From: Telmatocola sphagniphila
Lineage (GTDB): Bacteria; Planctomycetota; Planctomycetia; Gemmatales; Gemmataceae
Assembly (NCBI RefSeq): GCF_018398935.1
Contig: NZ_CP074694.1
Location: 2,070,001-2,102,000, forward strand
Reading direction: 5' to 3'
DNA: 32,000 bases
Below, piece by piece: positions 5,928-32,000 of this stretch. The notes beneath the pieces were generated by a model. It worked only from the letters and a program-made list of their open reading frames with translations, made no database searches and was not told the origin of the DNA. Position numbers and translations under genes: made by a program. Position 1 is the stretch's first letter, and the number at the start of each line of letters is the position of its first letter.

Positions 5928-6040
5928 TATCTTTACTGTTTTACTGCTTGTTTCTTCTAGATTTTGTCTTTATGCCTACCCCGTAGGGGTCGAATTTCAA
6001 ATTTTGTATTTATCTGACAATTTGTACAGTATCGGTAGTA

Positions 6041-6220: not shown

Positions 6221-6675
6221 GTGAAGCCGAACTGTCGAAGACGATGGGTCTGGAAGACGCCTACCGGTTGCTGAACGAAGAGGTCATGCGTCTGGTGTTG
6301 GCGGAGCAACTGTTCGAATTCGTGACCGCCTCGCCCGTGCAACAACCCAATGGCGAGATGAAATCGATTGGTGGCACGAATAACGAAGCGGAGCGGACGT
6401 TGCGTTTTCCCGCGGAGGCTCGAAAAACGGGTCGCACGAATAAGACTCTAATCGGAGCTCGGCGGCAAACGGTGCTCAAGAGCGTTCTGGAATCGCTGCG
6501 GTTGTATCTGTCGAAGTACACTTTGCAGAAGACGATTGAAGAGATTAACCGGTGGGCAAAAGTGGGGCAAAGTTGTTTCGCCCAGCTTTTAGAGAAGTTG
6601 AAGATTCCCAAAGCGGAAAGCCCGCTACTCGATCGACTCTTTCCTAAAGAACCGCAGCCACTAGGAATCGTTTAA
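6208..6675 (+). pseudogene. DDE transposase C-terminal fragment (IS66-like TNN.AER.LR motif)
   Basis: GGTNNEAERTLRFPAEARKTGRTNKTLIGARRQTVLKSVLESLR fits the 'TNN.AER.LR....RK......S..GA......S' pattern of IS66-type transposase C-termini. No N-terminal or catalytic part is present, and the fragment starts at the solo IS end. Confidence 0.45.
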
Positions 6676-6904
6676 AAGACAATCAGACGAGATTCGACTT
6701 TCCGACAGAAATTGATCGGACCGCCCCCACGCGCCCATACTTTGGACGGCTACTTTCTTTAGCGTGTCGAGAGGTTCGGATCCACTACGAATAGTAACGG
6801 GGAATTTGGCCACTCGCCGTTAGCCGGCCGTTGCTGGACAACCTTCACCCTCGTAGGATTATTGCATTTCCAAGACCCACGCCGGACTTTCGGCCCCACC
6901 GGTA

Positions 6905-9735: not shown

Positions 9736-9966
9736 TACGTTGCGTGCATTTACCCGTAACCTTTATTACACAGTTATGGGTTCAACACACACTCCAATTC
9801 TCTCGTTTCGAAACTATTCGACTTAGAAGTCATCAAAAAGTAAGAGCTTCCCAAATATCGGAATGAAATTTGCTTATATCTCAGCTCTTAGAGACTGCTT
9901 TCCACCAATAAGCGAAATGCTCCCAAAATTGGCCTCATTCCGTTAAGCAACCTAACAGCCGAAGCA

Positions 9967-11184: not shown

Positions 11185-11192
11185 TAGTCCTT

Positions 11193-14100: not shown

Positions 14101-14654
14101 TGCAACAAAATCCCTATAGCGCCTTTGTTTTGGGCGCCATCCTGGTGTTCTTTGTCCTCTCCGGCCTGTATGAGAGCTGGTCCTTACCCCTGGCTGTGAT
14201 TTTGGTGGTACCCCTCTGTCTTTCCAGCGCCTTGGCCGGGGTAATCCTTGCTCACATGGACTTGAATATTTTCGTTCAGGTCGGCTTTGTGGTACTCGTG
14301 GGTCTAGCCGCCAAAAATGCCATCCTGGTCGTTGAATTTGCCAGAGATCGCGAAATAGAAGGTGCCAAACCATTCGATGCGGCCGTGGAGGCGGCGACAG
14401 TTCGATTGCGACCGATCATTATGACCTCTTTTGCCTTTATCCTCGGGATGGCCCCCCTCGTGGTCGCAGAAGGCGCGGGTTCGGAGATGCGAAGAACCTT
14501 GGGAATAGCTGTGTTTTCGGGAATGCTGGGCGTTACTCTCTTCGGCATTTTTTTGACTCCGATTTTTTATTATCGCATTCGGTCGCTCAGTGGCCCACTT
14601 GCGAGTCCCACCACAGTGCCTACTGAACAATCTTTACCGGCTGCATCTCCGTAA
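11193..14654 (+). CDS. RND efflux permease (AcrB/HAE1-like), 1153 aa, with an enlarged central loop
   Basis: MLARFFIDRPILAWVISIIIVLIGL is a typical AcrB N-terminus. GIVVDDAIVVLENIERW is the TM4 proton-relay region. The C-terminal half has the matching repeat (LAAKNAILVVEFARD, RLRPIIMTSFAFILGMAPL). Confidence 0.95.
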   Translation: MLARFFIDRPILAWVISIIIVLIGLIAYKFLPIAQYPQITPPVVRVSASYPGASSAVVADTVAAPIEQQVNGVEGMLYMSSQSSNDGSYSLDVTFELGTDLNLAQVLVQNRVAIAQPQLPDVIKATGVTVKKRSPDILLVVNLYSEDDPATGQPYFDRLYMSNFATIQLLDPIARLEGVGDVFSFGGQDYSMRVWLDPDKLAAHGISAGEVAAVMQEQNVQVAAGQIGQPPVPAGQEYQYTVSTLGRLIDVEQFGSIVLKTGTNGEVLYLRDVGRLELGAKSQDQTLALDGRPSVGLAIFQLPGSNALDTADGIKAKMRQFERDQRLPKGLKYDIVYDTTPFIRESVDEVIKTLIIAVVLVAFVVLIFLQDWKSLLLPLIDICVSLVGTFAVLKLMGFSLNNLTLFGLVLAIGIVVDDAIVVLENIERWLDKGLPVREATIKAMSEITGPIMAITLVLSSVFIPSAFLGGITGQFFRQFALTISAAMLISAINAMTMTPARAASIFSGRKPGQKGDQGKEALPWWGFGLAGGLISVWLLKQLVGSWLGLIPHSAGGNDAVQTGFITSIKHYLVLTALFMPGLIAGGILGWFIIRPVNWALGQFFHAFNWVFERITQIYGKTVSRLLRWSFIALLLYLLLLVITGYGMTRIPGGFIPSQDKGRLIVNITLPDSASLERTEAITRQIEKIALETPGVAHTLGNPGRSFVLNAIGSNLGSMFVTLKPFDERLAPNLYADRIAAQLRARFKNEIPGAVINVFGAPAVDGLGNAGGFKVMIEAIGDVNFDRLQGQADNLVNKGNQIPGLIGMFNGFRAATPQLFADVNRVQCKTMGVSLTDVFATLQIYLGGYYVNDFNRFGRTWQVNIQADAAFRKDVESAKQLKVRNANGDMVPLGSVVDFREIGGPLTVTRYNLFTAATVGGASLPGMSTGEVLSTIEQLAVQELPHGMTYEWTELNFLQKQSSRLESFKDLQQNPYSAFVLGAILVFFVLSGLYESWSLPLAVILVVPLCLSSALAGVILAHMDLNIFVQVGFVVLVGLAAKNAILVVEFARDREIEGAKPFDAAVEAATVRLRPIIMTSFAFILGMAPLVVAEGAGSEMRRTLGIAVFSGMLGVTLFGIFLTPIFYYRIRSLSGPLASPTTVPTEQSLPAASP

Positions 14655-15090: not shown

Positions 15091-16681
15091 ATGACTATGC
15101 AGGACCTCTTTCCTCAAGAGGCCGGTTTGGTCGTTACCGATTTCGCTCTCACTCCGGATCTTTTGGTCCTTGCTCTAAAAACCACATACCCGAGTTTGCA
15201 GTACACCTACTGTGGCCAGCTGACATATCGGATTCACAGCCATTATCAGCGTGTATTGGCGGACTTACCCTGGCAAGCTCGACGAGTACTGCTCAGGATC
15301 GAACTGCGAAAATTTCGATGCATGAATGCCGCTTGCCCCAGGCAAATCTTCTGTGAACGGCTACCTCATGTATTTGCTTCCCATGCTCGAATAACGGATC
15401 GGTTAAAAGCTCTCCAGAAACAGATCGGTTTGGCATTAGGTGGCAGGCTGGGTACTCGACTCACGGGAAGTTATTCGTCCCGACCCCCTTTTACGTCGAG
15501 CCAAAGACAAAGTCGACTCCTTAGCCACTCCCCGTGTTCTCGGAGTGGACGATTTTGCATTCCGAAGAGGCCAAAACTACGGCACCATCTTGGTCGATTT
15601 AGAAAAGCATCGCGTTCTAGACTTACTGCCGGATCGGGAGGCTAAAACCCTGGCGTGTTGGTTGAAGGCCCATCCTCAAGTGGAAATTGTCAGCCGAGAT
15701 CGAGCCACGGCTTACGCCCAAGGCATTCGTGAGGCCTGTCCTCAGTCGATTCAGGTGACGGATCGTTGGCATCTTCTGAAAAATCTGCGGGAAGCCATCG
15801 AACGCTGGTTCGATGGAAAGCGGGAAAAGATTCGGGAGTTGATCCAAAAAAGTCACTGCGAAAAACCATCAATCAATAAGGAACTTACCAATCAGGTAGA
15901 CGCAGGGCTCTCCGATCGGCAGAAATTCCGAATGGAGCAATATAAGCAAGTACGTCGCTGGCATGAGGAAGGTCTATCGAAACGGCAAATTCACAAACGA
16001 ACAGGTCTCCATTTCCGAACGATCGACCGCTACTTGCGGCGAGAGGATTGTTCGAATTGGCTTCCCGGACGAAGAGGTTCCTCTCGTTTGGATGTTCACG
16101 AAGGCTTTATTAAGGAGCAATTGCAACAGCCCAAACAAACGGCCCAAAAAATCCACCAAGCTTTGAGAACAAAAGACTGTTCAATCGGTTATTCGGTCGT
16201 CAAAGCCTGTGTTCGACGTTTGAAAACCGAACTGGGGCTGCCCCTTTCCCGTCCCTCAAAGCCTTTCATACCCAATCGAGTTCCTTTGCCTTCTTCACGA
16301 AGTCTAGCCCTGAACTTGTTGCAAAAATCGGAAACTCGATCCGAGGAAGGAACGCGGATTCTTGAGATTTTGCTCAGTGCCGGAAGCGAGTTTCAGGGAC
16401 CTATCGATTTGACTTTAGCCTTTGCAACGCTGTTAAAAGGAAAGCAGGAATCGGCATTTTCGGAGTGGCTTCAGAAAGTGGAAGCCTCCTCGGTTCTCGA
16501 ATTGAAGCGGTTTGCTCAAGGCTTGCGAAACGACGAAGCCGCTGTTCGGGCCGCCGTAACTCTTCCCTGGAGCAATGGCCAAGTGGAAGGACAAGTTAAT
16601 CGATTGAAATCGATCAAAAGAGCGATGTTCGGTCGAGCCAAGTTCGATTTGCTGAAAGCGAGAGTGATTTGCAACGGGTAA
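15091..16681 (+). pseudogene. ISL3-family transposase, split by a frameshift near 15440-15480
   Basis: The frame-1 ORF (15091-15645) carries the N-terminal zinc-finger part (CGQLTYRIHSHYQRVLADLPWQARRVLLRIELRKFRCMNAACPRQIFCERLP...LALGGRLGTRL). The frame-2 ORF (15440-16681) continues with family motifs VLGVDDFAFRRGQNYGTILVDLE, SRDRATAYAQG, QVTDRWHLLKNL and the C-terminal WSNGQVEGQVNRLKSIKRAMFGRAKFDLLKARV. Confidence 0.8.
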
Positions 16682-16819
16682 ATGAGTAACTTGCCTGGAA
16701 ATAATTTTCTCCGCTCCCTAGTGAAGCGTGTGAACCCGTGCAAATTCGCCTGCCAAAAATCGCCTGGATGAAAAATAAAAACAGCTCTTTCGCGATGCTG
16801 ATCGCCATCGGATTAACTG

Positions 16820-16862
16820 CACCAACTGGGCGACAGAGCCCCTTTTCGACCGGCGTTTTCGG
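16820..16862 (-). repeat. Right terminal inverted repeat of the ISL3-type IS
   Basis: CACCAACTGGGCGACAGAGCCCCTTTTCGACCGGCGTTT is the reverse complement of the left repeat. Confidence 0.85.
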
Positions 16863-17054
16863 GTTAGAGTCACGGATCAAGTGCACCAGGCACTCGGAGG
16901 CCAGATAATCTGGCGACGCATCATCCGTTACCTTTAGCCGTGCACAAAGGGTAGCGAAATCCTGGCCCAATGCCCCATCAATGTTCGCTTCAATCCGACG
17001 TGGGCGAGTATAAAGCTTGCCCGTCCTGGTAAGCTTGGTAAGCGGTTGTGCCAT
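16863..17054 (-). pseudogene. Hypothetical gene truncated at its 3' side by the IS right end
   Basis: ATG at 17054 has GAGG 7 nt upstream. MAQPLTKLTRTGKLYTRPRRIEANIDGALGQDFATLCARLKVTDDASPDYLASECLVHLIRD then reads directly into the IS inverted repeat. I do not recognise a function. Confidence 0.3.
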
Positions 17055-17263
17055 ACGAATACCTCGCATCATGCTGTTACGCTCGTTCAGATGTCCCGTC
17101 CGATGCTCTTTGGGTTAATCGCTCGGAGGCCCTCAACCCGGAAAGGGAATTTCAAAAAAAAACACCCGGCAAGATTCATTCATCCTTATCACATGGTTAG
17201 CCCAGTGTCTTTCCGTAATTCTCGACACGCCAATAACTTCCGGCAAGGGACTTCATCGTCGCC

Positions 17264-18733
17264 TTATCCCAAGCCCTGCGTGAGATCGTTCAAATCCTGC
17301 GGGATGATGCCGTGGCCGGTCAACACAGCTCGTTGATCCGCGTCCAATACTGGTGAGATGCCGACGTACTGGTGAGACCAGCCCTGGTATTTCGGCATTG
17401 TCTGAAGGAATCGTGCGACATGCTGCTTGAAGTTGTTCACGTCGGATATGAGCTTGCCCGGTGAACGCTTGCAGGAACCAAATCGAATTGTTTCAGTCGT
17501 CTCATTGACAGCGACCAGGTCAATTTCGGTGTCCGCCTTATCCCAGAAACCTTGAACTCGATGGGTAATGGGAAAATCGCCTATCCCATTGCGACTCCGT
17601 TCCTCATAAAGCTGGCCCGCCAGTTTCTCCAGGGAACCACCTTCGACATCTGCCAGGCGCAGGTCGGCTTCATCTACGAGTTCCTGGAGCTGCCGAAACG
17701 CTATCGCGGATACCGGATTGGCCAACGCCGCTAGCCATGAACGGAGGAAATTGTCGGTGACATAGTAACGACTGCGCTTTGCTTCCGGTTTTGCGAACAC
17801 GGGCAACTTGCGTTCGATCAACCCAAATCGCTCAATAAGAACCTTCAGGTAGCCGCCCACTTGGGTATCAGGATTTCCGCTGGCGTCCCGAATGGCTTGC
17901 ACAAGTTCGTTGTGCATGCGCCCCGGATTTCGAGCCACGAACTTCAATACCACGTCGTATCGCCCCCGAAGTTCACGCAGGAACCAGTTCTCGGCTTCCG
18001 ACCGGAGAGGTGAGGAACTCTCGAAGAAAATGCGGCGGAGTATCGTCTTGCGGTCAGCGGCAAGTACATTCTGTTCGTAGCAGTCCCGATAGAACTTCGG
18101 TACTCCCTCGAAGAGGTTCCAAAGAAACAACAGGCGCTGCGGGCTCGGCTCTGCATGATCTTTGAGGATGGACAGAATCGAGCCGATGTCGAGATGCGTC
18201 AGGTTGATCGTGTCCGTGACTCGGTTGTAGAGAGGTGCCGTCCGATCTTCGAGCAGGGCCACCATCTCGATGTGGATCGATCCGAGGACGATCAGCCCGC
18301 CCCGCACCTGATCCGCCTTTGCCGCCAATCGGTCCACACTTGCTTGCAAATACGAGCAAAACTGCTCATAGCCCTTGCGATTGAAGTACTGGAATTCATC
18401 GAGAACCAGTATGAAGCCACCTTCAGCCATCGACTCCAGGAGCTTCGCCAGTTGCAACAGGTCATTGGGCCGGGGATACTGGTCAGCGGGAATGTGGAAC
18501 GTCTCCAGGGCGTCATTCACCGCCGAAAGAACGCCGGTCGGCTCGGAGTCGGGAATCTGCACGTAGAAGACCGGCTGTTTGCTTTTGATCTCCTGCATGG
18601 CCTGCTGGATCAGGGTCGTCTTGCCGATTCGGCGCCGCCCCGTCACTTTGGCGAAGAACCAGCGTTTACGGTCGAGCATCCGCTCCAAATCCGCGAGCTG
18701 TTCCTTTCGACCGTAAAACTTCCAGTCGGCCAT
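17264..18733 (-). CDS. AAA-type ATPase of the 'archaeal ATPase'/DUF234 class, with a C-terminal restriction-endonuclease-like module
   Basis: FYGRKEQLADLERML...VTGRRRIGKTTLIQ is Walker A with the family's typical N-terminus, and FILVLDEFQY is Walker B. The C-terminal DTEIDLVAVNETTETIRFGSCKRS resembles the DUF234 'EID....(E)CK' nuclease-fold motif. AGGAGA lies upstream of the ATG at 18733. Confidence 0.85.
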   Translation of the reverse strand: MADWKFYGRKEQLADLERMLDRKRWFFAKVTGRRRIGKTTLIQQAMQEIKSKQPVFYVQIPDSEPTGVLSAVNDALETFHIPADQYPRPNDLLQLAKLLESMAEGGFILVLDEFQYFNRKGYEQFCSYLQASVDRLAAKADQVRGGLIVLGSIHIEMVALLEDRTAPLYNRVTDTINLTHLDIGSILSILKDHAEPSPQRLLFLWNLFEGVPKFYRDCYEQNVLAADRKTILRRIFFESSSPLRSEAENWFLRELRGRYDVVLKFVARNPGRMHNELVQAIRDASGNPDTQVGGYLKVLIERFGLIERKLPVFAKPEAKRSRYYVTDNFLRSWLAALANPVSAIAFRQLQELVDEADLRLADVEGGSLEKLAGQLYEERSRNGIGDFPITHRVQGFWDKADTEIDLVAVNETTETIRFGSCKRSPGKLISDVNNFKQHVARFLQTMPKYQGWSHQYVGISPVLDADQRAVLTGHGIIPQDLNDLTQGLG

Positions 18734-18922
18734 GCCATTCTCCTGAGATAAAGCCGCTTTACCAAAATAAGATAAAACTACTTTACCTTACGCCGCATCG
18801 CATGGCAAGTCCTTTCTATTGAGGATGTTACGGGATTGTCGTGCAAGGAAAAAACCGCCGTATCCCGGCTTCCCAGCCCCGGATGCCGGCGATAAAAAGT
18901 TCAATAGTGACTGTGAATGAAA

Positions 18923-19528
18923 TCAAGAAATAATTGCAACATTTGAATGTTGCCAGAGCTCCTTTTTCTGAACCATTGCATTGATGATTATTAGTAATTT
19001 GTGAGCGACAGCCACCAGCGCGACTTTTGCGGTTTTGCCTCTTACACGCAGCCGTTTGTATAGAGCCCTGGCAGTTGGGTTGTATCGTGCAGCACTCAAA
19101 GAAGCCCTATACATCGCATTACGAACCTGCCTACGTCCCCCTACTGTGTGTCGTTGACCGATGGTAGTTCCACTATCGTTTGCAATGGGAGCAAGTCCTA
19201 CCAACTGCGCGATGACTTTCCGATTGACTTGTCCCAGTTCGGGAAGTTGGCCGATCAGGATCCTAGATGTTTGGGGTCCTATCTCGGGAATCGACTGGAT
19301 GATTCGGTCTAATTCCTTCCATTGCGGGTTTTCGGAAATTCGTTGATCGATCTCCTTTTCGATGGCGTTTATTTCCCGATTGATCCAGTTGATATGCTTC
19401 TTAATGCTTGTGATGGCCTGCTTTAGGACTACCGTTGCTAAACGGTTCGATTCCATAGTCTTCATGTTCATTAATTGCTCCCGACGGTCGAGCAAATCAC
19501 GAAAGAGCCTGATTTCTTCGGTTGGCAA
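18923..19528 (-). pseudogene. IS110-family transposase, C-terminal half only
   Basis: IPEIGPQTSRILIGQLPELGQVNRKVIAQLVGLAPIANDSGTTIGQRHTVGGRRQVRNAMYRASLSAARYNPTARALYKRLRVRGKTAKVALVAVAHKLL matches the IS116/IS110/IS902 C-terminal domain. No N-terminal DEDD catalytic domain lies upstream. Confidence 0.8.
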
Positions 19529-19652
19529 CGGAATGATTGTTTCCCGGGATTACCCTGCACGACCTCCAGAACAAGGGCTGATCCTTCTTTTGAAACCACG
19601 CGCTGTCCCAAATTATTAAAATCAGGCCAACCAAGAGTCGAATCTTTTTGAG

Positions 19653-20258
19653 TTAAACGCAATAGCACGCGGCTTGCAGAACGCGGACTGGGAAGTCGGA
19701 TACGAAAGTGCGATATGCAACGACATCTCCTTTGTCCTTAAGTTTTTGGAGGCATAAATTCCGAGCTGCTTCTGGGCCTTGGAGCCGTTCTCCAAATGGA
19801 ATTTTTCGAGTATAGTCTTTCTCTCCCGTGCGAGTGAGTACTGTCAACTCTTTGGTACCGATTTGCCCCTCGACGACAGTTTTTTGTTTCGAACTGGTGA
19901 TTTCAGCCCGAAACCGGGAGAAATCAAGTTCCTTCGTTTCGTCGCTCTGCGATTTACCTCTGATCTCGACCTTGTTACCCAATCGATTAGTAACGATCAC
20001 GACTTCCATAGTGCTATGGTGAGCACCCGCTTCCGTTCTCACGAGCGTCTCGTGGATATACCCTACCGGACTACCGGCAATCTTGTAGCTGCACCAAGTT
20101 TCAGACACGGTTTTGGATGCTTTTGCGCGTGTTGTCTCTCTTTCCTGGGCTTGAAGTGGTTCCGCAGAGCCCAAACAACCAATTAGACAGGCAAATACGA
20201 GAACTGAAAATACGATTGTTCGACGCCGTCGAACGACGAGAAACGATTCTTTTCGCAT
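19653..20258 (-). CDS. Putative lipoprotein of unknown function, possibly 3'-truncated
   Basis: The signal peptide has the lipobox LIGC (MRKESFLVVRRRRTIVFSVLVFACLIGC). The ORF ends abruptly next to the truncated IS110 fragment. Confidence 0.5.
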   Translation of the reverse strand: MRKESFLVVRRRRTIVFSVLVFACLIGCLGSAEPLQAQERETTRAKASKTVSETWCSYKIAGSPVGYIHETLVRTEAGAHHSTMEVVIVTNRLGNKVEIRGKSQSDETKELDFSRFRAEITSSKQKTVVEGQIGTKELTVLTRTGEKDYTRKIPFGERLQGPEAARNLCLQKLKDKGDVVAYRTFVSDFPVRVLQAACYCV

Positions 20259-21120: not shown

Positions 21121-24100
21121 CTATTTCTTCTCCAACTCTTTGGCCTTCAGATCGGTTATGAGTTTTTTAAAATCGTCTCGGGCGCGTAGGGAGTCGAAAT
21201 CCTTTTCTCGAGCAAGCTCCGTAGCGTTCCGGTATCCAGCTGCAACCGCTTCCTTTAACCATGCCATGGCTTTATCGGAGTCCGTACGAGCCTGGACGGC
21301 AAGCTCCTCACTAGGAGTAGTGGCAAGCAGCGACTTCTGGCAGACGGCACGGAATCGGGCCGCTTGGTATAGACTCGATGCATCTTTGCGTTTTAATTGC
21401 TCCCACATCTCGGCTGTAGCCCGACAACCCGCCACATCCTTCAACTTCTCACAAGACCGTAGCCTGGTGAATAGCACTTTCGGAATCAGGTGACACTCGA
21501 CGATTTTTCCCGCGGTTCTCTGGAGGCATTCGTCAAGCAATCGCAAGGCTTCCTGACCACGGTTTAAGGCAACTAGACTCTCAGCAACTCCCTGCATACT
21601 TCGTAACGTGTCCGGATGATCAGGACCGAATTTCACCTTCCGGAGGGCCCATGTTTCTTCATGGAGCTTAAGTGCTGCGGCGAACCGATTGGTATCTAGA
21701 TAGCTGCAGGCCAGACAATACATGCTGTCCAGTGTTTCGGGATGTTCGGGACCGAGCTTGGATTTTCGCAAGTTTAGCGTCTCTTCGCGAAGTTTCAGAG
21801 CCTCGGCGTGACGACCCAAAGAAGCGTAACTCTTGGCCAACTCATTGCAACTCCACAATGTGAGTGGATGGTCAACTCCAAACCTGGCCTTCCAAAGCAT
21901 TAGAGTTTCTTCGCGTAATTTTAGGGCTTCGGTATGTCGATCAAGATCGGCATAGCTACTGGCCAACGCACTCATGTTCCAAAATGTCTCGGGATGGCTG
22001 GGGCCGAGTTTGGCTTGGCATAGCGCCAGAGTTTCCTCGCGTAACCGAAGCGCATCTGAGTGTCTCCCTAGAAAGGCGTAACAACTGGCCAGATCACCTC
22101 TGGTGTACAGCGTAAGGCGGTGGTAAGGACCTAGCTGGAGGATTTTCACACGCAGAAGTTCTTCGTTGCGACTCAGCGCCTCATCGTAACGACCGACTGC
22201 TTGATAATTCCAGTTGAGGGCTCCCATACAAGCAAGAGTACGCAGATCGACAGACCCTAATTTGACTTTCTGCAATGCCAAGGTCTCTTCCAAAAGCTTG
22301 ATCGCCTCCGGATAACGTCCAAGAGAACCTAAGCAGCCTGCGACACCAGCCATGCTATTGAGCGTTTCGGGGTCGTCAGGTCCAAGTTTGGACTGTCGTA
22401 ATGCTAATAGTTCTCGATGAAGCTTCAGCGCATCCTCAAAACGACCAAGTCCTAAATAGCATTCCGCCAAAACGAACATACTCCAAAGTGTGTTCGCATG
22501 CTCGGGACCTAGCTTTACTTTTTGGAGAACTAACGTCTCTTCCTCAAGCGTACAAGCCTCTTTGTACCGGCCCAGGTCGAAATAAATGTCGGCGAGTTTA
22601 CTCATGCACTCCAAGGTGTCCGGGTGGTCGAGACCCAAATTTTCGCTCAGTAGCGTCCTTGCCCGTTGATACTGCTCGGCCGCGATTTTTGATCGGTCCA
22701 GCGAGCCAAAGGAACTCCCCAAAGTCATACGCAAATGGGCTTCGATGAGTGGCTGCTTGGAAAATCGTTCCCTGACGGAAGGTAAGGCCGCTTCCAGTGC
22801 CTCGGTTAAAAGCACCTCATGTCCTAGGCCGCCATCCAGCCCCTCCGGGCGAGCCGCCGCAAAAACTTTTTCCTCGAGGAAACTGAGAATTGTCTTACTT
22901 TTCTCCGCCTCTTCATTGGTTCGCTGCTGCTCTTCCTCTACCTCGGCTAAGCTATGGCGGGCCAACCCTTCCGCCACCTGAGCCCGCATCAGGGCCAGAG
23001 AGGTGCCGGTCATTCCAGCCAGCAGGGCGAATAACACCAGGGCAGCTACAATCACAGGCCTCTTGTTTCGCTTGAGGAACTTCTTGAAACGATACGTGGT
23101 TTTCGGGGGGCAAGCGAGCACAGTATCACCTGCCAAGTAACGCTGGATGTCCAGGCCGAAGCCATTGGCAGTTTCATAGCGTCTGTTCCGATCTTTCTCG
23201 ATGGATCTCATAACAATCCAATCGAGTTCGCCCCGTATCTGCTTCGTCAATTTCGACGGGTCCATTTGCCGCTGGGCGGAGATATTCGGCAAGGCCTCAT
23301 CCGTGGAAAGTCGCGTGCTCGGCTTCGGAGGCTCCTCCTCCCGAACCAGACGAAGCATCTCCAGCAGCGCCTGGTGTTTCAGGCTCTTGCGGTTCAGCGG
23401 TGTACTACCGGTAAGCAGTTCATAGAGCAAGACGCCGAGGGCGTAGATGTCGCTGCGAGTGTCGATGTCCTGGTTGTTGAGTTCCGCCTGCTCGGGGCTC
23501 ATGTACTCCAGCGTGCCTATGATCGCGCCGAACTCGGTGTACATCGTCTTATCGGTGAGTCGTTGACCGGTCGCTTTCGCGACCCCAAAGTCGATGACTT
23601 TCACGACCGGATGGCCGTCATAAGGGGCCACCAGAACATTGCTGGGTTTGATATCGCGGTGAATGATCCCTTTCTGATGGGCGTGCTGGATGGCCGCACA
23701 GACTGCAACGAACAGTTCGAGACGCTGTTTCAGCGACACGCGATGTTCGTCGCAATAGTGCGTGATCGGCGTGCCTTTCACCAGCTCCATTACGAAGAAG
23801 GGGCGATTGCCGCTAAGCCCGGCGTCGAAGATGCGAGCGATGTTCGGATGGTCCATCAAGGCCAGGGCTTGACGCTCGGCCTCGAATCGGGCGATGACTT
23901 GGGCGGAATCCATGCCTTCCTTCACCAGTTTGATCGCGACCATCCTGCGGACCGGTTCTTGTTGCTCCGCCATCCAAACGGTGCCCATCCCGCCTTCGCC
24001 GATCTTTTGCAACAATTTATACGGGCCAATCAGGGTCCCAGGCTTGTCCGCTGCCTCCGTTTTCAGCTTATCCGGAGCAATCCAGTTACCCGCGGGCATT

Positions 24101-24288
24101 TCAACGGTGGCTTCAATGCGAGCAGCGGGTTGTTCCAGAAAGCCCGTGTCACTCTCTTGGAGATGAAGAAGTTCCTCGATCTGCTTGCGCAGTTCCATAT
24201 TGTGGCCGCAGGCCTCATCGAGGTATGCCGCCCGTTCGGTGGCCGTCTTTTTTTTCAGGGCCGTCGCAAAAATGAGGCTTTCGTTCAT
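21121..24288 (-). CDS. Ser/Thr protein kinase with one TM helix and a long TPR array (1055 aa)
   Basis: The start MNESLIFATALKKKTATERAAYLDEACGHNMELRKQIEELL is an N-terminal motif typical of sigma-associated kinases, and AGGAAG lies upstream of the ATG at 24288. Kinase motifs are GEGGMGTVWMA, AIK, HRDIKPSNVLV, DFG and YMSPEQ. The TM segment is PVIVAALVLFALLAGMTGTSLAL. It is followed by about ten KLC-like TPR units (LGPDHPDTL.SM..LA). Confidence 0.9.
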   Translation of the reverse strand: MNESLIFATALKKKTATERAAYLDEACGHNMELRKQIEELLHLQESDTGFLEQPAARIEATVEMPAGNWIAPDKLKTEAADKPGTLIGPYKLLQKIGEGGMGTVWMAEQQEPVRRMVAIKLVKEGMDSAQVIARFEAERQALALMDHPNIARIFDAGLSGNRPFFVMELVKGTPITHYCDEHRVSLKQRLELFVAVCAAIQHAHQKGIIHRDIKPSNVLVAPYDGHPVVKVIDFGVAKATGQRLTDKTMYTEFGAIIGTLEYMSPEQAELNNQDIDTRSDIYALGVLLYELLTGSTPLNRKSLKHQALLEMLRLVREEEPPKPSTRLSTDEALPNISAQRQMDPSKLTKQIRGELDWIVMRSIEKDRNRRYETANGFGLDIQRYLAGDTVLACPPKTTYRFKKFLKRNKRPVIVAALVLFALLAGMTGTSLALMRAQVAEGLARHSLAEVEEEQQRTNEEAEKSKTILSFLEEKVFAAARPEGLDGGLGHEVLLTEALEAALPSVRERFSKQPLIEAHLRMTLGSSFGSLDRSKIAAEQYQRARTLLSENLGLDHPDTLECMSKLADIYFDLGRYKEACTLEEETLVLQKVKLGPEHANTLWSMFVLAECYLGLGRFEDALKLHRELLALRQSKLGPDDPETLNSMAGVAGCLGSLGRYPEAIKLLEETLALQKVKLGSVDLRTLACMGALNWNYQAVGRYDEALSRNEELLRVKILQLGPYHRLTLYTRGDLASCYAFLGRHSDALRLREETLALCQAKLGPSHPETFWNMSALASSYADLDRHTEALKLREETLMLWKARFGVDHPLTLWSCNELAKSYASLGRHAEALKLREETLNLRKSKLGPEHPETLDSMYCLACSYLDTNRFAAALKLHEETWALRKVKFGPDHPDTLRSMQGVAESLVALNRGQEALRLLDECLQRTAGKIVECHLIPKVLFTRLRSCEKLKDVAGCRATAEMWEQLKRKDASSLYQAARFRAVCQKSLLATTPSEELAVQARTDSDKAMAWLKEAVAAGYRNATELAREKDFDSLRARDDFKKLITDLKAKELEKK

Positions 24289-24382
24289 GGTAGACTTCCT
24301 TATTCCTGGAGTCGCCAATTCATTTTTTCTCTCTAATCCCAATGCGCCAAATCCGGGGAAAACCCCCGGAAGAATTTAGTAA

Positions 24383-24943
24383 TTATTTCGCTTCGCGCTG
24401 CATGTCCCGTTTCAACCACACTTTAGCGTAAGTCCAATCTTCCTCGGCGGTTGATAAAGAGATGCTTAAAATCGCGGCGGCTTCAGCCAAAGTGCAGCCA
24501 GCAAAATAACGCAGTTTTACCAGTTGGGATTTTCGAAACGATTTGGCTTCTAGTCTTTCCAGACTCTCATTCAAAGCGAGTATGTCAATCGCTTCGACCG
24601 GGGCTTTGATCGAAGGTTCGTGTTGCTCAAGTTCCTTCTGTTGAAGTTGGCCGCCTCGCTTCAGGCGACTTTTGCTACGAGCTTTTTCGACGAGAATCCG
24701 CCGCATCGCTTCCGCAGCGGCAGCAAAGAAATGACCGCGTCCTTCAAAATGCTGGTCGCCGACCAATCTGAGATAGGCTTCGTGTACTAAAGCCGTGGCT
24801 TCCAAGGTCTGCCCGGGCGTTTCCAACGCCATTCTTGCAGCGGCGAGTTTCCGAAGTTCTTCGTAAACCAGGGGTAGCAACTCCGCTGCCGCCTGATTAT
24901 TTCCACGATGAGCTGCCACCAGTAATTGAGTCAGATCGGACAT
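24383..24943 (-). CDS. ECF-type RNA polymerase sigma factor (planctomycete Sigma70_ECF type), 186 aa
   Basis: MSDLTQLLVAAHRGNNQAAAELLPLVYEELRKLAAARM...TLEATALVHEAYLRLV gives region 2. QLVKLRYFAGCTLAEAAAILSISLSTAEEDWTYAKVWLKRDM gives region 4. It lies 94 bp upstream of, and on the same strand as, the kinase-TPR gene. Confidence 0.85.
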   Translation of the reverse strand: MSDLTQLLVAAHRGNNQAAAELLPLVYEELRKLAAARMALETPGQTLEATALVHEAYLRLVGDQHFEGRGHFFAAAAEAMRRILVEKARSKSRLKRGGQLQQKELEQHEPSIKAPVEAIDILALNESLERLEAKSFRKSQLVKLRYFAGCTLAEAAAILSISLSTAEEDWTYAKVWLKRDMQREAK

Positions 24944-25140
24944 AAAGGAATAGTCTATCTCCCAGAAATTAGACTGCCATCCATTGCCTATTTTCAACTG
25001 TCGGACGTAGTTCAGTAGAAGCTAACACGACTACTAACGCACCGTCAGCCCGCGAGAGACAAATAGGTCGCTCAAAAAATGGACTTCCCCACTAAAAACG
25101 GACACCGAGTTAAGCTGATAAGCTAACTTCGGAGGTTCGG

Positions 25141-25389
25141 ATGGAGAAGTTGAAGGTCAAGCGTCGTCGTAAGCGGTATTCTGCCGAGTACAAGAAAGCC
25201 GCCGTAGAGTTGGTGACTGTAACAGGTCAGTCTCCCGCAGAAGCGGCCAAGTCGCTGGGTGTTACCTCGCAGACGATAAAGAGGTGGATCGACGAACTCA
25301 CCAAGCTCGGCGAGAAGGCCTCCCAACGCAAAACTGCGAAGCTGCCTGGGCACAATCACCTGGAAGACCATCGCCGCCTAATGCGATGA
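25141..25389 (+). pseudogene. IS3-family transposase OrfA (HTH) remnant; no OrfB follows
   Basis: KRRRKRYSAEYKKAAVELVTVTGQSPAEAAKSLGVTSQTIKRWIDEL is the IS3/IS911 OrfA HTH pattern. No leucine-zipper/frameshift region or DDE OrfB lies downstream. The 3' end collides with a convergent gene fragment. Confidence 0.65.
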
Positions 25390-25683
25390 ACCGTGCAGGG
25401 AAGCTGATCGTAGTAGCGAAATCCGGTAATCGATCCCCTGATGCTTCATCAGCGCGTCGATCCATCGTACGGGATCGGGGGCACCATTGATTCGGTCTTC
25501 TGGTCGAAGAATCAGATAAAAACCATGACGTGGATTAGCCAAGCGATGCTTCTTGATTAACCGCGTGATCGAGGCCGCAAGCGTTCCGTTTTTCAGGTCG
25601 AGCGCCGACTCCACTTCCTCACGGGAGAAGTTGGCACGACCGTGAATCAACCGGCCCTCAACAAATTGTTCGATCCTCCTCAT
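25378..25683 (-). pseudogene. AbiEi-type (type IV toxin-antitoxin antitoxin / COG5340-like) N-terminal fragment
   Basis: MRRIEQFVEGRLIHGRANFSREEVESAL...ITRLIKKHRLANPRHGFYLIL...PDPVRWIDALMKHQGIDYRISLLRSASLHGSSH fits the wHTH plus 'YY.gLLsAA.lHGa.HQ' pattern of AbiEi antitoxins. The frame stops where the IS3 remnant begins, and no AbiEii toxin gene is present. Confidence 0.5.
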
Positions 25684-25912
25684 TCCCAAATCACATACGA
25701 AAATCGACATTATTACAAGATTTTTGCAGATGAATTGGGAATATCTTGGAATGACAATGCGTTAGCCGACCTGGTCAAAAACCATGTCCAAGGTTTACGC
25801 ATGGCTATTTTATGGGTAAAATGCCGTTCAAGGTGCTTTGAAGTTGTCCAAAAATTGAGATGAGAAACGTTCTCGATAGACAAGAAAAACTGAAATTTGC
25901 AATACGGCGAGT

Positions 25913-27551: not shown

Positions 27552-28007
27552 AAGTGGCTACGTGATTTCTTTGAAGACATTTTGCTAGACCCGATACACC
27601 AAATCCGGTAAAGTTGACTCGAACTTAATGGACAGTCGCAGAGTTATCTTCATGAAGCGGGATCCTGGCTTCGAAATTTGTGATTAAAAATAACTTGCAG
27701 TCTAGAGCAAATTTCAGAATCTGTGGATGCTCTTAATGGGGGGCTCTGATGGATTGTGACCACCCTACATCAATCGGGAGAATAGATCGCAAGGAATTGG
27801 ATTACTGAGATAGGGAATTGAGTACTTCCAAGAGCACGAGATTACCATTCTGAAACAAAGTAAACATACCATGCCCCATTGATGTCCTCAAGATAGTGTC
27901 GTTTCTTGAGTGCCCGTACAAAATTGAAATCGGTCGACTATACATCTTTGATGTTCAAAATAACGAGAGAGCATTTAACCAACAACAATCTGGTGGAGGT
28001 GACTCGC

Positions 28008-29264
28008 ATGGCACGGATTCACAATAAGACTGTTGGCGATAATTGGGAAGTCTACACGGAATCATTCTTGAACGAAGTTGAAGATAAGACCCGCCTAACT
28101 TGGGATCGACAATTTTATGAAGAAGTCAACAACAACATACGATACTTAGATTTGGACATCAGTGATCAAACCGGGGAGAGGTTTGCAGTAGTGGAAGTTA
28201 AGTCGGGTTCGATCGAAGATCCCACACAGATCCAAGATCATATCCAGCTAGCCATCGATTCTACTTCTCAGATCTATGTACTTGTTACCCCTGATGGTAC
28301 ATGTTCCAACTTTGCTAACGATCAAGCCGTGATGCAAGAACTGCAATCCACTGATGTGCGACAGCTCATCGAGAACGGGACAGTTGTGTTTGACAATCCG
28401 TCTGGACAAGTCACAGTCGTCGTTGAGTCTCCAGAGAATTTGCCAGCACTTTTCGAAGGCCTATGTGATGGAAAAACTGCGGAAGAAGTGACTCGCGATA
28501 TTCGCGAACGAGAAAAATTATGCGAAGCTACCGAAAAAACCGAAGGCGAAGCTGCCGAAAAGGCTGAACGCGAAGCCGCCGAAAAAACCGAACGCGAAGC
28601 TGCCGAAAAAACCGAACGCGAAGCTGCCGAAAAAACCGAACGCGAAGCTGCCGAAAAAACCGAACGCGAAGCTGCCGAAAAGGCCGAACGCGAAGCTGCC
28701 GAAAAGGCCGAACGCGAAGCTGCCGAAAAAGCTGAACGCGAAGCTGCCGAAAAAGCTGAACGCGAAGCTGCCGAAAAAGCTGAACGCGAAGCTGCCGAAA
28801 AAACCGAACGCGAAGCTGCCGAAAAAACCGAACGCGAAGCTGCCGAAAAAACCGAACGCGAAGCTGCCGAAAAGGCCGAACGCGAAGCTGCCGAAAAAGC
28901 TGAACGCGAAGCTGCCGAAAAAGCTGAACGCGAAGCTGCCGAAAAAGCTGAACGCGAAGCTGCCGAAAAAGCTGAACGCGAAGCTGCCGAAAAAACCGAA
29001 CGCGAAGCTGCCGAAAAAGCTGAACGCGAAGCTGCCGAAAAAGCTGAACGCGAAGCTGCCGAAAAAGCTGAACACGAAGCTGCCGAAAAAGCTGAACGCG
29101 ATCAGACCGCGAGTGAGGAAGGTAGGGATCTAGGGGTTGATTTTAATCTTGAAGAACCTGCTAAAGAATCGATAGGCAGCGAAATGCATGAGGGTGGAAT
29201 TACTGAAACAGGATTTGGTTCTGATTTTCATGGCTGGTTCGGACATGAAGGAGATCATTGGTGA
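28008..29264 (+). CDS. PD-(D/E)xK nuclease-fold protein fused to a 192-aa tandem EREAAEK(A/T) repeat and an acidic/aromatic C-terminal tail
   Basis: GGAGG (27995-27999) lies 8 nt before the ATG at 28008. Alternative upstream starts are ATG 27951 and TTG 27906. The N-domain has E (WEVYTESF), D (IRYLDLDISD) and E-x-K (FAVVEVKSG), followed by Q..IQLAI, in the spacing typical of restriction-endonuclease-like folds. Next come 24 in-frame octads, then the tail ...GFGSDFHGWFGHEGDHW. Confidence 0.8.
   Translation: MARIHNKTVGDNWEVYTESFLNEVEDKTRLTWDRQFYEEVNNNIRYLDLDISDQTGERFAVVEVKSGSIEDPTQIQDHIQLAIDSTSQIYVLVTPDGTCSNFANDQAVMQELQSTDVRQLIENGTVVFDNPSGQVTVVVESPENLPALFEGLCDGKTAEEVTRDIREREKLCEATEKTEGEAAEKAEREAAEKTEREAAEKTEREAAEKTEREAAEKTEREAAEKAEREAAEKAEREAAEKAEREAAEKAEREAAEKAEREAAEKTEREAAEKTEREAAEKTEREAAEKAEREAAEKAEREAAEKAEREAAEKAEREAAEKAEREAAEKTEREAAEKAEREAAEKAEREAAEKAEHEAAEKAERDQTASEEGRDLGVDFNLEEPAKESIGSEMHEGGITETGFGSDFHGWFGHEGDHW
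28530..29100 (+). repeat. Tandem repeat, 24-bp unit x ~24 copies, in frame within the CDS
   Basis: The unit GAACGCGAAGCTGCCGAAAA(A/G)(ACC/GCC/GCT) repeats head to tail with no spacers. The only other substitutions are GGC (unit 1), GCC for GCT (unit 2) and CAC for CGC (unit 23/24). Confidence 0.95.
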
Positions 29265-29455: not shown

Positions 29456-30493
29456 ATGGATAGTGTTAGTGAAAGTATTGCCATTTATAAATACATAGGT
29501 GATTATTTGAGTCTAGATAAAGAAAAGCAATTGCTATTTCTCAATCACATGACTGACGTCCGAAAGAAGGGTGGTCGCATCTACGGCCCGTCTTATACCA
29601 GCATTCTTCAGCTCAACACCACTGATCCCCGTGAATCTCTTGACATCATCGGAACTGCATTACTCAATCTAAAAGGAGGTGCATCATCAGAGTCGTACTG
29701 GCAAATCAAACGTAAACTCCATTCCGATCCGGTTAAACCAGGCAACTTCCGCTTTATGGCGTCGTGTCGCTACCTTTGGTTTCCTCACGGAGGATCGCTA
29801 GAAATGTCCTTCGGACGCCAAGATTTAATTGTGTCCGCAAGCCAGAATGAAAACGGTACTTCCACATCGTGTGAACTAACAAACCAGGACGAATGGGGAT
29901 TTACATTTGAGGTGAGTCGAATGGTGGCAGAACAATGTTGGAGATTGCTGCTTCCAGAAATAGTTCAAAGTGGAGCTCTGTCAGAGGTCGTGACTGTTCC
30001 GACATGGCCTCAAAAATTTGAACAATATCGAGTTCCGTATCTTTCAGCGCTTCCCGATTCTACAATGGGGCACCAGCACTTCGCCAAACAAGAATACTCT
30101 GAAGCTATTGCCTCTTACGATAAAGCCATTGCGATCAACCCTTATGACCCAATAAATTTCGGACACCGCGCTCAATGTCATTTCATAAAGGGACAATTAG
30201 ATCTCGCCTATATTGATGCTAGCATGTCAATGCAACTTAATCCGACTGATCCATTCAATTACTGGATGAGGAGTCAATGCTTAAGAAATAGCGGTAAACC
30301 CGATCTTGCAGTGGAAGATGCGGCAAAAGCAGTTCTGCTAGATCCCGCTAATCCCAATATGTTCATCGGGCGGGGCACCATCTTTCAAGATTTAGGAAAA
30401 ACAGAGGAAGCCAGAGCTGACTATAGGAAAGCACTTCAACTTGATCCCAGTTCGACTACAGCAACTACTTTGCTGATGAAACTTAACACGTGA
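29456..30493 (+). CDS. TPR-repeat protein with an unrecognised ~205-aa N-terminal domain (345 aa)
   Basis: GAGGA lies 6 nt before the ATG at 29456. The C-terminal third holds about four TPR units (HQHFAKQEYSEAIASYDKAIAINPYDP; ...MSMQLNPTDP; ...AAKAVLLDPANP; ...YRKALQLDPSS). The stop TGA at 30491-30493 is 2 nt before the next ATG. Confidence 0.85.
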   Translation: MDSVSESIAIYKYIGDYLSLDKEKQLLFLNHMTDVRKKGGRIYGPSYTSILQLNTTDPRESLDIIGTALLNLKGGASSESYWQIKRKLHSDPVKPGNFRFMASCRYLWFPHGGSLEMSFGRQDLIVSASQNENGTSTSCELTNQDEWGFTFEVSRMVAEQCWRLLLPEIVQSGALSEVVTVPTWPQKFEQYRVPYLSALPDSTMGHQHFAKQEYSEAIASYDKAIAINPYDPINFGHRAQCHFIKGQLDLAYIDASMSMQLNPTDPFNYWMRSQCLRNSGKPDLAVEDAAKAVLLDPANPNMFIGRGTIFQDLGKTEEARADYRKALQLDPSSTTATTLLMKLNT

Positions 30494-30495
30494 AC

Positions 30496-32000
30496 ATGGC
30501 AGAACGGAATAAAATCGTGGACACATCACCTAGTTCAAGCGTACGACCGATCCTTCTCGCAGTCTCGGAACAAATTCTCGAAGGAAAGATTACAGATGTT
30601 CTCAGTGCCTGCCGATTTGAAGGTATAAAAGTCCTCCGAGATTCGCGTTTTGCGACCGCTTACCGCAAATCGAAACGTGGAAACTCTGTTATTGGGTCCT
30701 GGGAAAAAGAATCCAGACTTGAACTCAACTGGGAACCCCAGTCGGACTTGGTCAAACTAAATGTTGTGGCGTATGACGCTGCTATTGGAAATCCCAAAAT
30801 TCTCGATACTGCAACTTGCAAGGAAATAACCGAAGCATTTCTGCGACTGGTTCAGCCTTCAATTTCACCAAGTTCAGAGGTTGTCCTGATGCCGGGGGAA
30901 AGCTCTCTTGGCCCGTCACGAGGTCCGATCAGAGATTATTCTCGTTGCGCACGAGAGGAAGAATTGAGTGATCTTTTCCACGGCGACCTACCTTTAGGAC
31001 GATACGCCTTTGGAAGAACACCACAAGCTTTGCGTCACGGCAAGCCACTTTTCCTTTCTCGTTTTCCGCACACAAACCAGCCGATGATATATAATGGCGT
31101 CCTTCTTTGCGCTCCACAAAATTCTGGCAAGACTGAACTATTGCTGACATGGGCAGCGGCTGCAAATCGTGCCGGATACTCTATTTTCATGATTGATGTG
31201 AAAGGCAATTTGAGATCCAAGCTGGATAGGTTTAAGAATACATGGCGAGGTGAATTATTCCACTTTTCCGTACGCCCTGGAATTGACTCAGCTCGACTCA
31301 ATTTTCTAGCTCCACTCGCATACGGCCAACCTTTAGACTCAAAAAGACTGGAAAGTCTTGCTGGAGCAATATTACCTGCTGAAGGATGGGACGGTGAAGG
31401 TGGTGAGGCGGAAATGTTCTATCAGAGCCGATTATTGCGACTAACGGCTTTTCTACATATACTCAAGTTCCGACACGATTACTGCTATAAGTACATAGCG
31501 AAACGAAATCCAAACGGAAGACCGGGCGATTATTACATACTTTCCGAGGGCACTGCTCCGGCCATCCCTAGTTTGTCAGAATTATATAATTTCGCGACCG
31601 ATGAAGAACTTGTTTGCTTCTGGATTAAGCGCATAGCGGAAGCAGAGAAATCTCTTGAAAGTCTGGGAAGAGGGAAGCTGCTACCAGAAAAAAGGGTTGA
31701 AATGTGGGCTCGCGATATTGCGCCAATCCTTCATCCTGATTACTTACCAGGTATAGGACAACGCCGGGATCCGAAAGTCGGTTATAGAGATCTGACTTAT
31801 GGCGTGGCACTTGCACTCCACCCATTTTCGGAAGGCGTATTATTGGAGAGAACTTCACCTTCTGGATCCGGTAAATTGTTTGATTTTCAAACGTTAAATC
31901 GCAGCAAAAATGAACATCCAGTAAGCTTATTGCTGGAAGTCGGGGAGGATGATCCGAAACAAGCCGCGGCTATAACTTCACTCACTGTACGCGCTCTGGA
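30496..32000 (+). CDS. VirD4/TraG-type (type IV coupling protein-like) P-loop ATPase with no N-terminal TM helices; 3' end outside the window
   Basis: My own translation is open from the ATG at 30496 to base 32000 (about 501 codons, no stop). That is why it is missing from the ORF track. GVLLCAPQNSGKTELLLTW (Walker A, nt 31111-31134), SIFMIDVKGNL and LFHFS......ARLNFLAPL mirror the VirD4/TraG pattern 'LLcAPTRSGKG....P.LLtW ... DiKGE ... FdP....s..yNPL'. The first ~190 aa are hydrophilic and unrecognised. Confidence 0.8.
   Translation, partial: MAERNKIVDTSPSSSVRPILLAVSEQILEGKITDVLSACRFEGIKVLRDSRFATAYRKSKRGNSVIGSWEKESRLELNWEPQSDLVKLNVVAYDAAIGNPKILDTATCKEITEAFLRLVQPSISPSSEVVLMPGESSLGPSRGPIRDYSRCAREEELSDLFHGDLPLGRYAFGRTPQALRHGKPLFLSRFPHTNQPMIYNGVLLCAPQNSGKTELLLTWAAAANRAGYSIFMIDVKGNLRSKLDRFKNTWRGELFHFSVRPGIDSARLNFLAPLAYGQPLDSKRLESLAGAILPAEGWDGEGGEAEMFYQSRLLRLTAFLHILKFRHDYCYKYIAKRNPNGRPGDYYILSEGTAPAIPSLSELYNFATDEELVCFWIKRIAEAEKSLESLGRGKLLPEKRVEMWARDIAPILHPDYLPGIGQRRDPKVGYRDLTYGVALALHPFSEGVLLERTSPSGSGKLFDFQTLNRSKNEHPVSLLLEVGEDDPKQAAAITSLTVRAL

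Follow-up and report, generated by a model that had tools for sequence, protein, structure and literature searches.

Single alpha-helices (SAHs) have been reported from bacteria, archaea, and eukaryotes (PMC4183817, PMC5378345). ER/K SAHs, which include those of myosin VI and X, caldesmon, a Trichomonas Kelch-motif protein, and engineered linkers, are long segments rich in Glu, Arg, and Lys that possess i/i+4 networks and lack a hydrophobic seam. Mechanically, such helices are worm-like chains whose persistence length is ~15 nm (PMC8964680), and for an ER/K helix of 30-nm contour the mean end-to-end distance is ~22–23 nm, with the ends still meeting at an effective concentration of ~100 nM (PMC8964680, PMC5552854). 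Among designed charged repeats, AEEEKKK remained monomeric, whereas less charge and more Ala, as in AEEAKKA (57% charged), produced dimers and oligomers instead of SAHs (Wolny et al., PMC5347031). Here we analyze gene A of Telmatocola sphagniphila, found on the + strand at 28008–29264 of a 32,000-nt stretch of DNA (the window), an open reading frame (ORF) encoding a 418-aa protein composed of a PD-(D/E)xK-like domain, a helix of tandem octads, and an acidic/aromatic tail. Related proteins are labeled P#### and contigs L###. The original prediction, which considered gene A alone, described a nuclease separated from a binding tail by a rigid helical ruler. Its description of the domains is largely supported, but it missed the operon partners, a TPR protein (gene B) and a TraG-like ATPase (gene C), which reframe the function. 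We tentatively favor a reading in which the gene A protein serves as effector in a conflict module built on an ATPase, its octads forming a mostly monomeric helix that tethers the nuclease-like domain to a peptide that docks on the products of gene B and/or gene C, the length of the helix being uncalibrated.

Using Tandem Repeats Finder, a 24-bp repeat of 24.2 copies was identified at 28522–29101 of the + strand (95% matches, no indels, score 957). It encodes 23 clean, in-register octads of the form E[R/G/H]EAAEK[A/T] at residues 179–362 (28542–29093), comprising 13 EREAAEKA, 8 EREAAEKT, and one each of EGEAAEKA and EHEAAEKA. They are preceded by the degenerate LCEATEKT and followed by ERDQTASE; with 23 clean octads and one degenerate one, the earlier count of 24 octads and 192 residues was correct to within one unit. 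Six of the 24 columns of the repeat unit are variable, and three unit types account for 20 of the 23 units, arranged in runs (ABCCCDDEEECCCDEEEECEEEF). Identity between units is the same at a lag of 192 bp, or eight units (0.961), as at a lag of 24 bp (0.960), and falls to 0.92 at lags of three to four units. Near-identical units (96%) together with a 192-bp higher-order pattern point to recent expansion, and the array is, as read from its sequence, young, having arisen by recent block duplication with gain and loss of single units; it is probably also unstable. Logan short-read contig L014, from the same strain, has no mismatches to the window over an overlap of 2,957 bp. The copy number rests on one complete genome because L014 breaks inside the array, at 29044.

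The repeat was not present in any relative among ~15 billion proteins, and a second copy of the repeat-bearing gene was not found in genome and metagenome scans; the octad repeat attached to this N-terminal domain is known from one strain only. Similar octads were detected in two metagenomic proteins: P0027, which is unrelated and contains six EREAAEKA units before a zinc-ribbon-like C terminus, and P0026, an FtsY-like fragment with ~10 EREAREKA units. These octads look like convergent charged linkers, and their independent origin suggests that such units are a recurrent route to charged linkers. The same body of evidence bears on an alternative explanation, that the array is a neutral or near-neutral in-frame minisatellite in a tolerant linker, functionless, within a gene that is perhaps decaying after horizontal transfer. 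The unit identity, the few variable columns, and a block order implying duplication of ~8-unit segments all agree with this explanation, as do the confinement of the repeat to one family member, the independently arisen octads of P0026 and P0027, and the location of gene A in a foreign island of low G+C content at third codon positions (GC3) that is full of insertion sequence (IS) fragments. It is countered by a reading frame that remains open through the 580-bp repeat and the 54 codons after it, and by the intact catalytic signature and intact partner genes B and C. We regard the minisatellite explanation as unlikely, while treating it as a serious candidate; it overlaps the tether reading that we favor and differs only on whether tethering matters.

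Single-sequence AlphaFold2 (AF2) predicted an alpha-helix spanning residues 158–371 (28479–29120 of the + strand; 214 residues, ~32 nm contour), consisting of helices at residues 158–264 and 268–371 with a predicted local distance difference test score (pLDDT) of 80–88 and a break at residues 265–267. The 216-aa segment at residues 157–372 is 36% Glu, 30% Ala, 23% Arg plus Lys, and 6% Thr, with a net charge of −30. Each octad is 62% charged and 30–37% Ala, with a net charge of −1 per unit, and contributes to two continuous i/i+4 ladders, E3-K7-E3′ and R2-E6-R2′. The octads have a computed 0.49 opposite-charge i/i+4 pairs per residue; at i/i+3 there are no opposite-charge pairs and 0.36 like-charge pairs per residue. 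For comparison, the designed SAH AEEEKKK is 86% charged and has a computed 0.70 pairs per residue at i/i+4 and the same at i/i+3, with like-charge pairs absent. The helical octad array put forward in the original prediction is supported by the AF2 helix.

No Leu, Ile, Val, Met, or Phe is present within the 184 residues of the clean octads. Their apolar periodicity is 4.0 (amplitude 0.24), the amplitude at periods of 3.5–3.67 is 0.01 or less, and the Ala patch rotates by +80 degrees per octad, equivalent to +10 degrees per residue versus −2.9 for a heptad. A conventional coiled coil, the state against which the original prediction had set its single helix, was rejected: the apolar period is 4.0 rather than 3.5, no large hydrophobic residues and hence no hydrophobic heptad are present, and the Ala patch rotates. 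The prediction of a long helix at pLDDT 80–88 without a heptad seam makes a single charged helix plausible for the octads. Because the seam rotates and each octad carries a net −1, association of octad helices is disfavored, and the helix is most likely a charged monomer, although this is not assured.

Many PD-(D/E)xK enzymes work as dimers, and the helix might self-associate through its Ala-rich faces as an antiparallel hairpin, dimer, or higher oligomer, thereby multimerizing the nuclease domain. The composition of the octad is near that of the dimerizing AEEAKKA (PMC5347031), and the break in the AF2 helix falls near its midpoint. Nevertheless, self-association is improbable in our estimation: large hydrophobic residues are absent, the rotation of the Ala patch is far outside the range open to supercoiling, which runs from −2.9 degrees per residue (heptad) to about +4, the apolar signal is at 4.0 and not at coiled-coil periods, and the net charge of each octad would repel parallel partners.

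For an octad helix of 184–214 residues, we computed a contour of 27.6–32.1 nm and a root-mean-square (rms) end-to-end distance of 21–24 nm. With a contour about twice the persistence length and large fluctuations around that rms distance, the helix is modeled as a semi-flexible tether rather than a rigid rod. This bears directly on the rigid ruler of the original prediction, in which the nuclease would be fixed ~29 nm from the binding tail for distance-dependent cleavage. A long uninterrupted predicted helix with an i/i+4 salt-bridge network, flanked by a globular domain and a putative docking tail, speaks for a ruler, but a helix twice as long as the 15-nm persistence length allows its ends to meet (PMC8964680, PMC5552854), its length is conserved in no relative, and the array is evolutionarily young. 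A net-negative helix is also unlikely to lie along DNA, unlike the basic KER helix of CAF-1 (PMC10335832). Octad chemistry counts further against rigidity, since the octads are 62% charged, with like-charge i/i+3 pairs and −1 per unit, and Ala-rich designs self-associated (PMC5347031). Comparison of repeat number among homologues, proposed with the ruler, found zero relatives carrying the repeat, the nearest having a Lipase_3 domain in its place. We therefore consider a calibrated ruler very unlikely. Two other roles for the helix were rejected: that of an SAH that binds DNA in the manner of the KER helix of CAF-1, which is basic and lies along DNA (PMC10335832), the octad helix being net negative, and that of a secreted or periplasmic TolA-like spacer, there being no signal peptide or transmembrane (TM) segment.

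The helix is followed by a 54-aa tail rich in acidic, aromatic, and His residues at residues 365–418 (29100–29261 of the + strand), which ends in GWFGHEGDHW. It has a net charge of −12, with four His, three Phe, and two Trp, and is predicted to be disordered (AF2 pLDDT <50); the acidic/aromatic tail of 53 aa described previously was one residue off. No homologue of the tail was found, and searches with the tail plus the last octads matched only the two unrelated repeat proteins P0026 and P0027. Homology between gene A and its closest relative, P0002, extends through ...LFEGLC[DE]GKTA..V.RD[IL]R, the first turns of the predicted helix, and then ends. Beyond this point P0002 continues into a brief charged segment followed by a Lipase_3 domain (1.8e-13); no lipase remnant was detected after the Telmatocola repeat by tblastn. 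The cyanobacterial family members possess basic, low-complexity, disordered tails beyond the N-terminal domain, and the tail of most relatives is basic (isoelectric point [pI] 9–11) and ends in ...RRMTR, a feature lacking in the Telmatocola protein. Because P0002 carries Lipase_3 and the cyanobacterial members carry basic tails, the family is best described as a constant N-terminal domain with an appendage at the C terminus that varies. The charged junction (RDIREREK...) appears to have been amplified into octads in Telmatocola.

The charge of −30 on the helix and −12 on the tail, with no basic segment, in a family whose other members have a basic tail on their acidic core, raises the alternative that helix and tail act as a cis autoinhibitor, nucleic-acid mimic, or entropic shield that is lifted by the ATPase or TPR partner, or that they constitute a disordered polyampholyte. 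This is highly improbable in our view: a composition of Glu, Ala, Arg, and Lys is strongly helix-prone, the AF2 helix is confident, and no sign of interaction between the helix and the domain was seen in this analysis.

The N-terminal globular domain (residues 1–156; 28008–28475 of the + strand) was recognized as PD-(D/E)xK-like from family alignments A1 and A2, AF2 topology, and weak profile matches. In 21 family members, G10, E14, E63, K65, S66, G67, Q74, and T94-P-D-G-T98 are invariant, and E18 and D48 are nearly so, being kept in at least 90%. The signature E(alpha1)...D(beta2)...ExK(beta3)...Q(alpha2) is the classical PD-(D/E)xK arrangement, with a putative catalytic motif at 28149–28202 of the + strand formed by D48 (28149–28151) and E63-V-K65 (28194–28202). 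An AF2 model built with the 21-sequence family alignment contains a helix at residues 6–24, strands at 35–40, 43–53, and 58–64, a helix at 72–85, and a strand at 88–93 (alpha-beta-beta-beta-alpha-beta), and it places D48 and E63/K65 on consecutive strands, with a mean pLDDT of 54 and a predicted template modeling score (pTM) of 0.47. The best profile matches of the domain, all below cut-offs, are to HSDR_N_2 (E 0.083) and PRK14677/UPF0102 (E 0.079), and relative P0003 matches DUF234, also below the cut-off (E 0.086); all three are PD-(D/E)xK clan families. The core domain is acidic across the family (pI 4.1–5.4), and the gene A N-terminal domain has a net charge of −18.

Searches of PDB sequences with the single sequence and with two profiles found nothing relevant for the domain, and Foldseek returned no match to it at E ≤ 0.001. 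Among the top 50 PDB Foldseek matches, all of them weak, ~20 are PD-(D/E)xK nucleases: AdnA/B, McrC, VRR-NUC, SfsA, NucS/EndoMS, Shedu SduA, BpuSI, DrdV, TnsA, Cas4, Card1, BsaXI, and cap-snatching endonucleases. Nucleases also dominate the named viral matches. When homologues of the domain were sought, a word-indexed search found nothing, an exhaustive phmmer search of 1.84 billion representatives identified four clusters at 50% identity, and a profile search added ~20 proteins (90% identity clusters), of which the named ones are from filamentous cyanobacteria. Two relatives are named “Restriction endonuclease type IV Mrr domain-containing” in UniRef. No match for gene A was detected by PADLOC, and alignment of the family profile with the window's own DUF234 protein using hhalign was uninformative (probability 0.1). 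Together, these data indicate that the domain fits the PD-(D/E)xK fold with an apparently intact putative active site; the PD-(D/E)xK claim of the original prediction is supported by the signature, the topology of a low-confidence model, and the family conservation of D48, E63, and K65, but not by any significant database match.

Gene B, at 29456–30493 of the + strand, encodes a 345-aa protein with an N-terminal domain of ~200 aa that has no assigned family and C-terminal TPR repeats (Pfam TPR_1, 1e-21). Gene C follows at 30490–32000 of the + strand, where translation of its 5′ 500 codons gives a P-loop ATPase that is soluble and TraG/VirD4-like, the frame being still open at the end of the window; ORFs crossing the window end are omitted from the ORF listing, hence gene C was hidden from it. 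It starts at either GTG 30490, overlapping the gene B stop, or ATG 30496, and is complete on L014 (1447–3462; 669–671 aa), reaching ~505 bp past the window end. The gene C protein matches TraG-D_C (6.8e-10) and T4SS-DNA_transf, has Walker A (APQNSGKT) and Walker B (LLLLLDE) motifs, and has no hydrophobic or TM segment. No type IV secretion system (T4SS) genes were found in the window or in L014, and we take gene C to be TraG-like in fold and not a T4SS component. Gene C (6e-3) and the cyanobacterial TraG-like genes (1e-8) weakly resemble mad8 of the MADS system, to which the MADS preprint assigns no function. GC3 is 0.40 in gene B and 0.39 in gene C, with a range of 0.39–0.43 across A-B-C versus 0.59–0.60 in the neighboring resistance-nodulation-division (RND) pump and kinase genes. 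Because gene C overlaps the gene B stop and all three genes share a low GC3, the view that A-B-C is an operon-like, horizontally acquired three-gene module is supported. The low GC3, the mobile-element debris, and the defense genes around A-B-C likewise mark the region as what we interpret to be a foreign, variable, defense-rich island.

A TraG-like ATPase also accompanies the family in other genomes. In Microseira, two Microcoleus, and Roseofilum, a 216-aa family member is encoded 4 nt downstream of a TraG-like ATPase of 576–577 aa. Upstream of the ATPase in these genomes (L001–L004, ~5200–12400; Microseira wollei, two Microcoleus, and Roseofilum) are a ThiF-E1, an 85-aa ubiquitin-like protein ending in VGGA, a UQ_con-like E2, and a JAB peptidase; the scores in L002 are 7.6e-50 for ThiF, 1e-3 for UQ_con, and 3e-9 for JAB. 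From this gene content, the cyanobacterial loci are interpreted as a Bil-like ubiquitination operon coupled to an ATPase–nuclease-like pair. The Bil and Bub papers that we consulted mention no TraG/VirD4 or nuclease partner, and no E1, E2, or JAB remnants were detected in the Telmatocola window by tblastn. Like gene C, the Microcoleus TraG-like ATPase lacks a TM anchor, and its surroundings showed no further T4SS genes. Gene C and the cyanobacterial ATPases are 23–27% identical, with a common C-terminal CRKPFLVD.

The accompanying genes are different elsewhere. P0004 adjoins a TraG-like ATPase and two DO-GTPases, the latter known from a conflict system that Kaur et al. (PMC7159879) have described, P0017 follows a 978-aa DUF87/HerA-like ATPase, and P0002 is found after two AAA ATPases and a TraG-like ATPase and before a zeta toxin. 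Lipase genes are present in some family-member neighborhoods. On this evidence, the partner ATPase is repeatedly of the FtsK/HerA/TraG class, in conflict-system settings, and this class is conserved, whereas the accessory modules differ between lineages. The contigs that show this include L012 (8001–15088) and L013, where the neighborhood of the family member has a TraG-like ATPase and a double DO-GTPase, and L008 (2485–13004), with TPR/RDD, DUF87 (HerA-like), family member, and HSP70-like genes. Genes directly downstream of family members (L001 10557–11519, L002 10686–12353, L004 10670–12187, and L010 1905–2699) encode a common N-terminal Cys-rich, zinc-ribbon-like module joined to differing C termini (Pilin_GH/ComP_DUS, GUN4, or none), and these Cys-rich proteins may be a variable sensor component.

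In the reading that we tentatively favor, the linker RDIREREK... would have been amplified to 23–24 octads by in-frame slippage or unequal recombination of the 24-bp unit. The octads would form one long helix of Ala, Glu, Arg, and Lys, highly soluble and for the most part monomeric, acting as a semi-flexible tether with a contour of 28–32 nm and a mean reach of ~21–24 nm between the nuclease-like domain and a putative acidic/aromatic docking peptide at the C terminus. The TPR protein and/or the ATPase would be the most plausible partner(s) for that peptide, and the nuclease would act around an ATPase-bound site and not at a set distance. The length of the helix would be accidental, recent in origin, and probably variable, either tolerated or of slight benefit, and no calibrated ruler would be involved.

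Several observations weigh against this reading. A gap of 191 nt containing a promoter-like match separates genes A and B, placing their shared transcript in doubt. The octad has like-charge i/i+3 pairs and 30–37% Ala, and a monomer is not assured because Ala-rich designed charged repeats oligomerized (PMC5347031). The model of the N-terminal domain is of low confidence (pLDDT 54), and the domain has no significant match to a curated PD-(D/E)xK family or solved structure (best E 0.08 and 0.03, respectively). The whole gene A protein is strongly acidic, with a net charge of approximately −60, no basic segment, and a core pI of 4.1, which is unusual for a DNA-binding enzyme. Finally, the tail is a putative docking peptide, and its binding to B or C is a step that we infer.

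A broader proposal is that the family and its soluble TraG/VirD4-like ATPase form the core of an undescribed conflict or defense system that has been plugged into Bil-like, DO-GTPase, or TPR modules. Coupling proteins recognize charged C-terminal tails of their clients, and in this proposal the helix would be a functional tether and the tail a coupling-protein-style signal to which the TPR adaptor or the ATPase binds. Placement or release of the nuclease would fall to the ATPase, and changes in repeat number would tune reach or effective concentration. In this full form we rate the proposal as a long shot.

Gene A is recorded as KIH39_08400 (WP_213498888.1), named “hypothetical protein,” with a length of 452 aa from TTG 27906, and its frame is open from that codon through the stop at 29262–29264. 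However, P0002 (67% identical to gene A) and all other family members start at the residue equivalent to ATG 28008, and a GGAGG Shine-Dalgarno-like site, read from the sequence at 27995–27999 of the + strand, is located 8 nt upstream of this ATG. On the basis of the homologue N termini and the GGAGG site, ATG 28008 is the likely start and is preferred over TTG 27906, and the annotated protein probably has 34 extra residues, encoded by 27906–28007. An antisense ORF of 185 aa of FGSFAF repeats at 28518–29075 (− strand) is a by-product of the repeat and not a gene. A noncoding or antisense origin of the locus was rejected, the N-terminal domain being conserved at the protein level.

The remainder of the window contains several other genes. 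A 1591-aa protein at 1152–5927 has a Ser/Thr kinase joined to an nSTAND1 NTPase and, at the C terminus, to an FGE-sulfatase domain, an architecture typical of NTP-dependent conflict systems. Type I restriction-modification genes encoding HsdM (N6_Mtase) and HsdS are located at 6905–9735, with no HsdR nearby, and are followed by an HlyD/AcrB-type RND efflux pair at 9967–14654. Mobile-element debris at 15440–20258 and 25141–25710 comprises an ISL3 transposase, IS110-family fragments, and an IS3-type helix-turn-helix fragment, and it includes a 110-aa N-terminal fragment of AbiEi (PADLOC, 1.8e-36); an ATPase_2-DUF234 gene is found at 17264–18733. On the − strand, at 21121–24997, a 1073-aa Ser/Thr kinase with TPR_12/TPR_10 matches the PADLOC models for PD-T4-6 and the mad6 kinase and adjoins a planctomycete-type extracytoplasmic function sigma factor (PF07638).

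Single charged helices are known, from bacteria too, and so are PD-(D/E)xK domains; the fusion found here is in one genome and is not conserved. The original prediction was not aware of such a feature in bacterial PD-(D/E)xK enzymes, and we found no description in the literature of a charged single helix fused to a PD-(D/E)xK domain. Like the ER/K SAHs, the octad array is a long, predicted helix without a hydrophobic seam that joins two functional parts; unlike them, it is a perfect 8-residue repeat with 30–37% Ala/Thr, 62% charge, and a net −1 per unit, has like-charge pairs and no salt bridges at i/i+3, and is known from one strain and by prediction only. The Ala scaffold with Glu and Lys/Arg at i/i+4 is shared with Ala-based E/K peptides, (EAAAK)n, and the AEEEKKK/AEEAKKA series (PMC5347031), whose Ala-richer variants oligomerized, but the array is natural, has 24 units and more Glu, and repeats every eight residues, not every five or seven. 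TolA domain II and the FtsY A-domain are also charged helical spacers of short tandem units, and the gene A protein matches the TolA profile NF007065 at 1.9e-5, a low-complexity match far under the curated cut-off; those are envelope or targeting proteins, whereas the octad spacer is in a cytoplasmic nuclease-like protein, and the likeness is one of convergent composition without homology. The helix adds a natural, perfectly periodic candidate of ~30 nm, built of Ala, Glu, Arg, and Lys, to the short list of bacterial SAH candidates, and the octad with its rotating Ala stripe is a model polypeptide for the choice between a single helix and an Ala-mediated oligomer.

The larger value of the locus is in a tiny PD-(D/E)xK-like family that is consistently paired with soluble TraG/HerA-class ATPases. 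If this pairing is a defense module, it would link ubiquitin-like signaling to an ATPase-nuclease effector arm. The family shares with the PD-(D/E)xK superfamily (Mrr-cat, HSDR_N, UPF0102 YraN, and DUF234-like) the E...D...ExK...Q signature and, by prediction, the core topology, and is set apart by its acidic core (pI 4.1–5.4), its very small size, and its lack of a match past a curated threshold. The gene A family is unrelated to NurA, but its genomic arrangement, a P-loop pumping-type ATPase encoded beside a small nuclease-fold protein, is like that of FtsK/HerA-class ATPase–nuclease pairs such as HerA-NurA and the HerA-associated defense effectors, and its partner ATPase carries the TraG-D_C/T4SS-DNA_transf signature of VirD4/TraG type IV coupling proteins.

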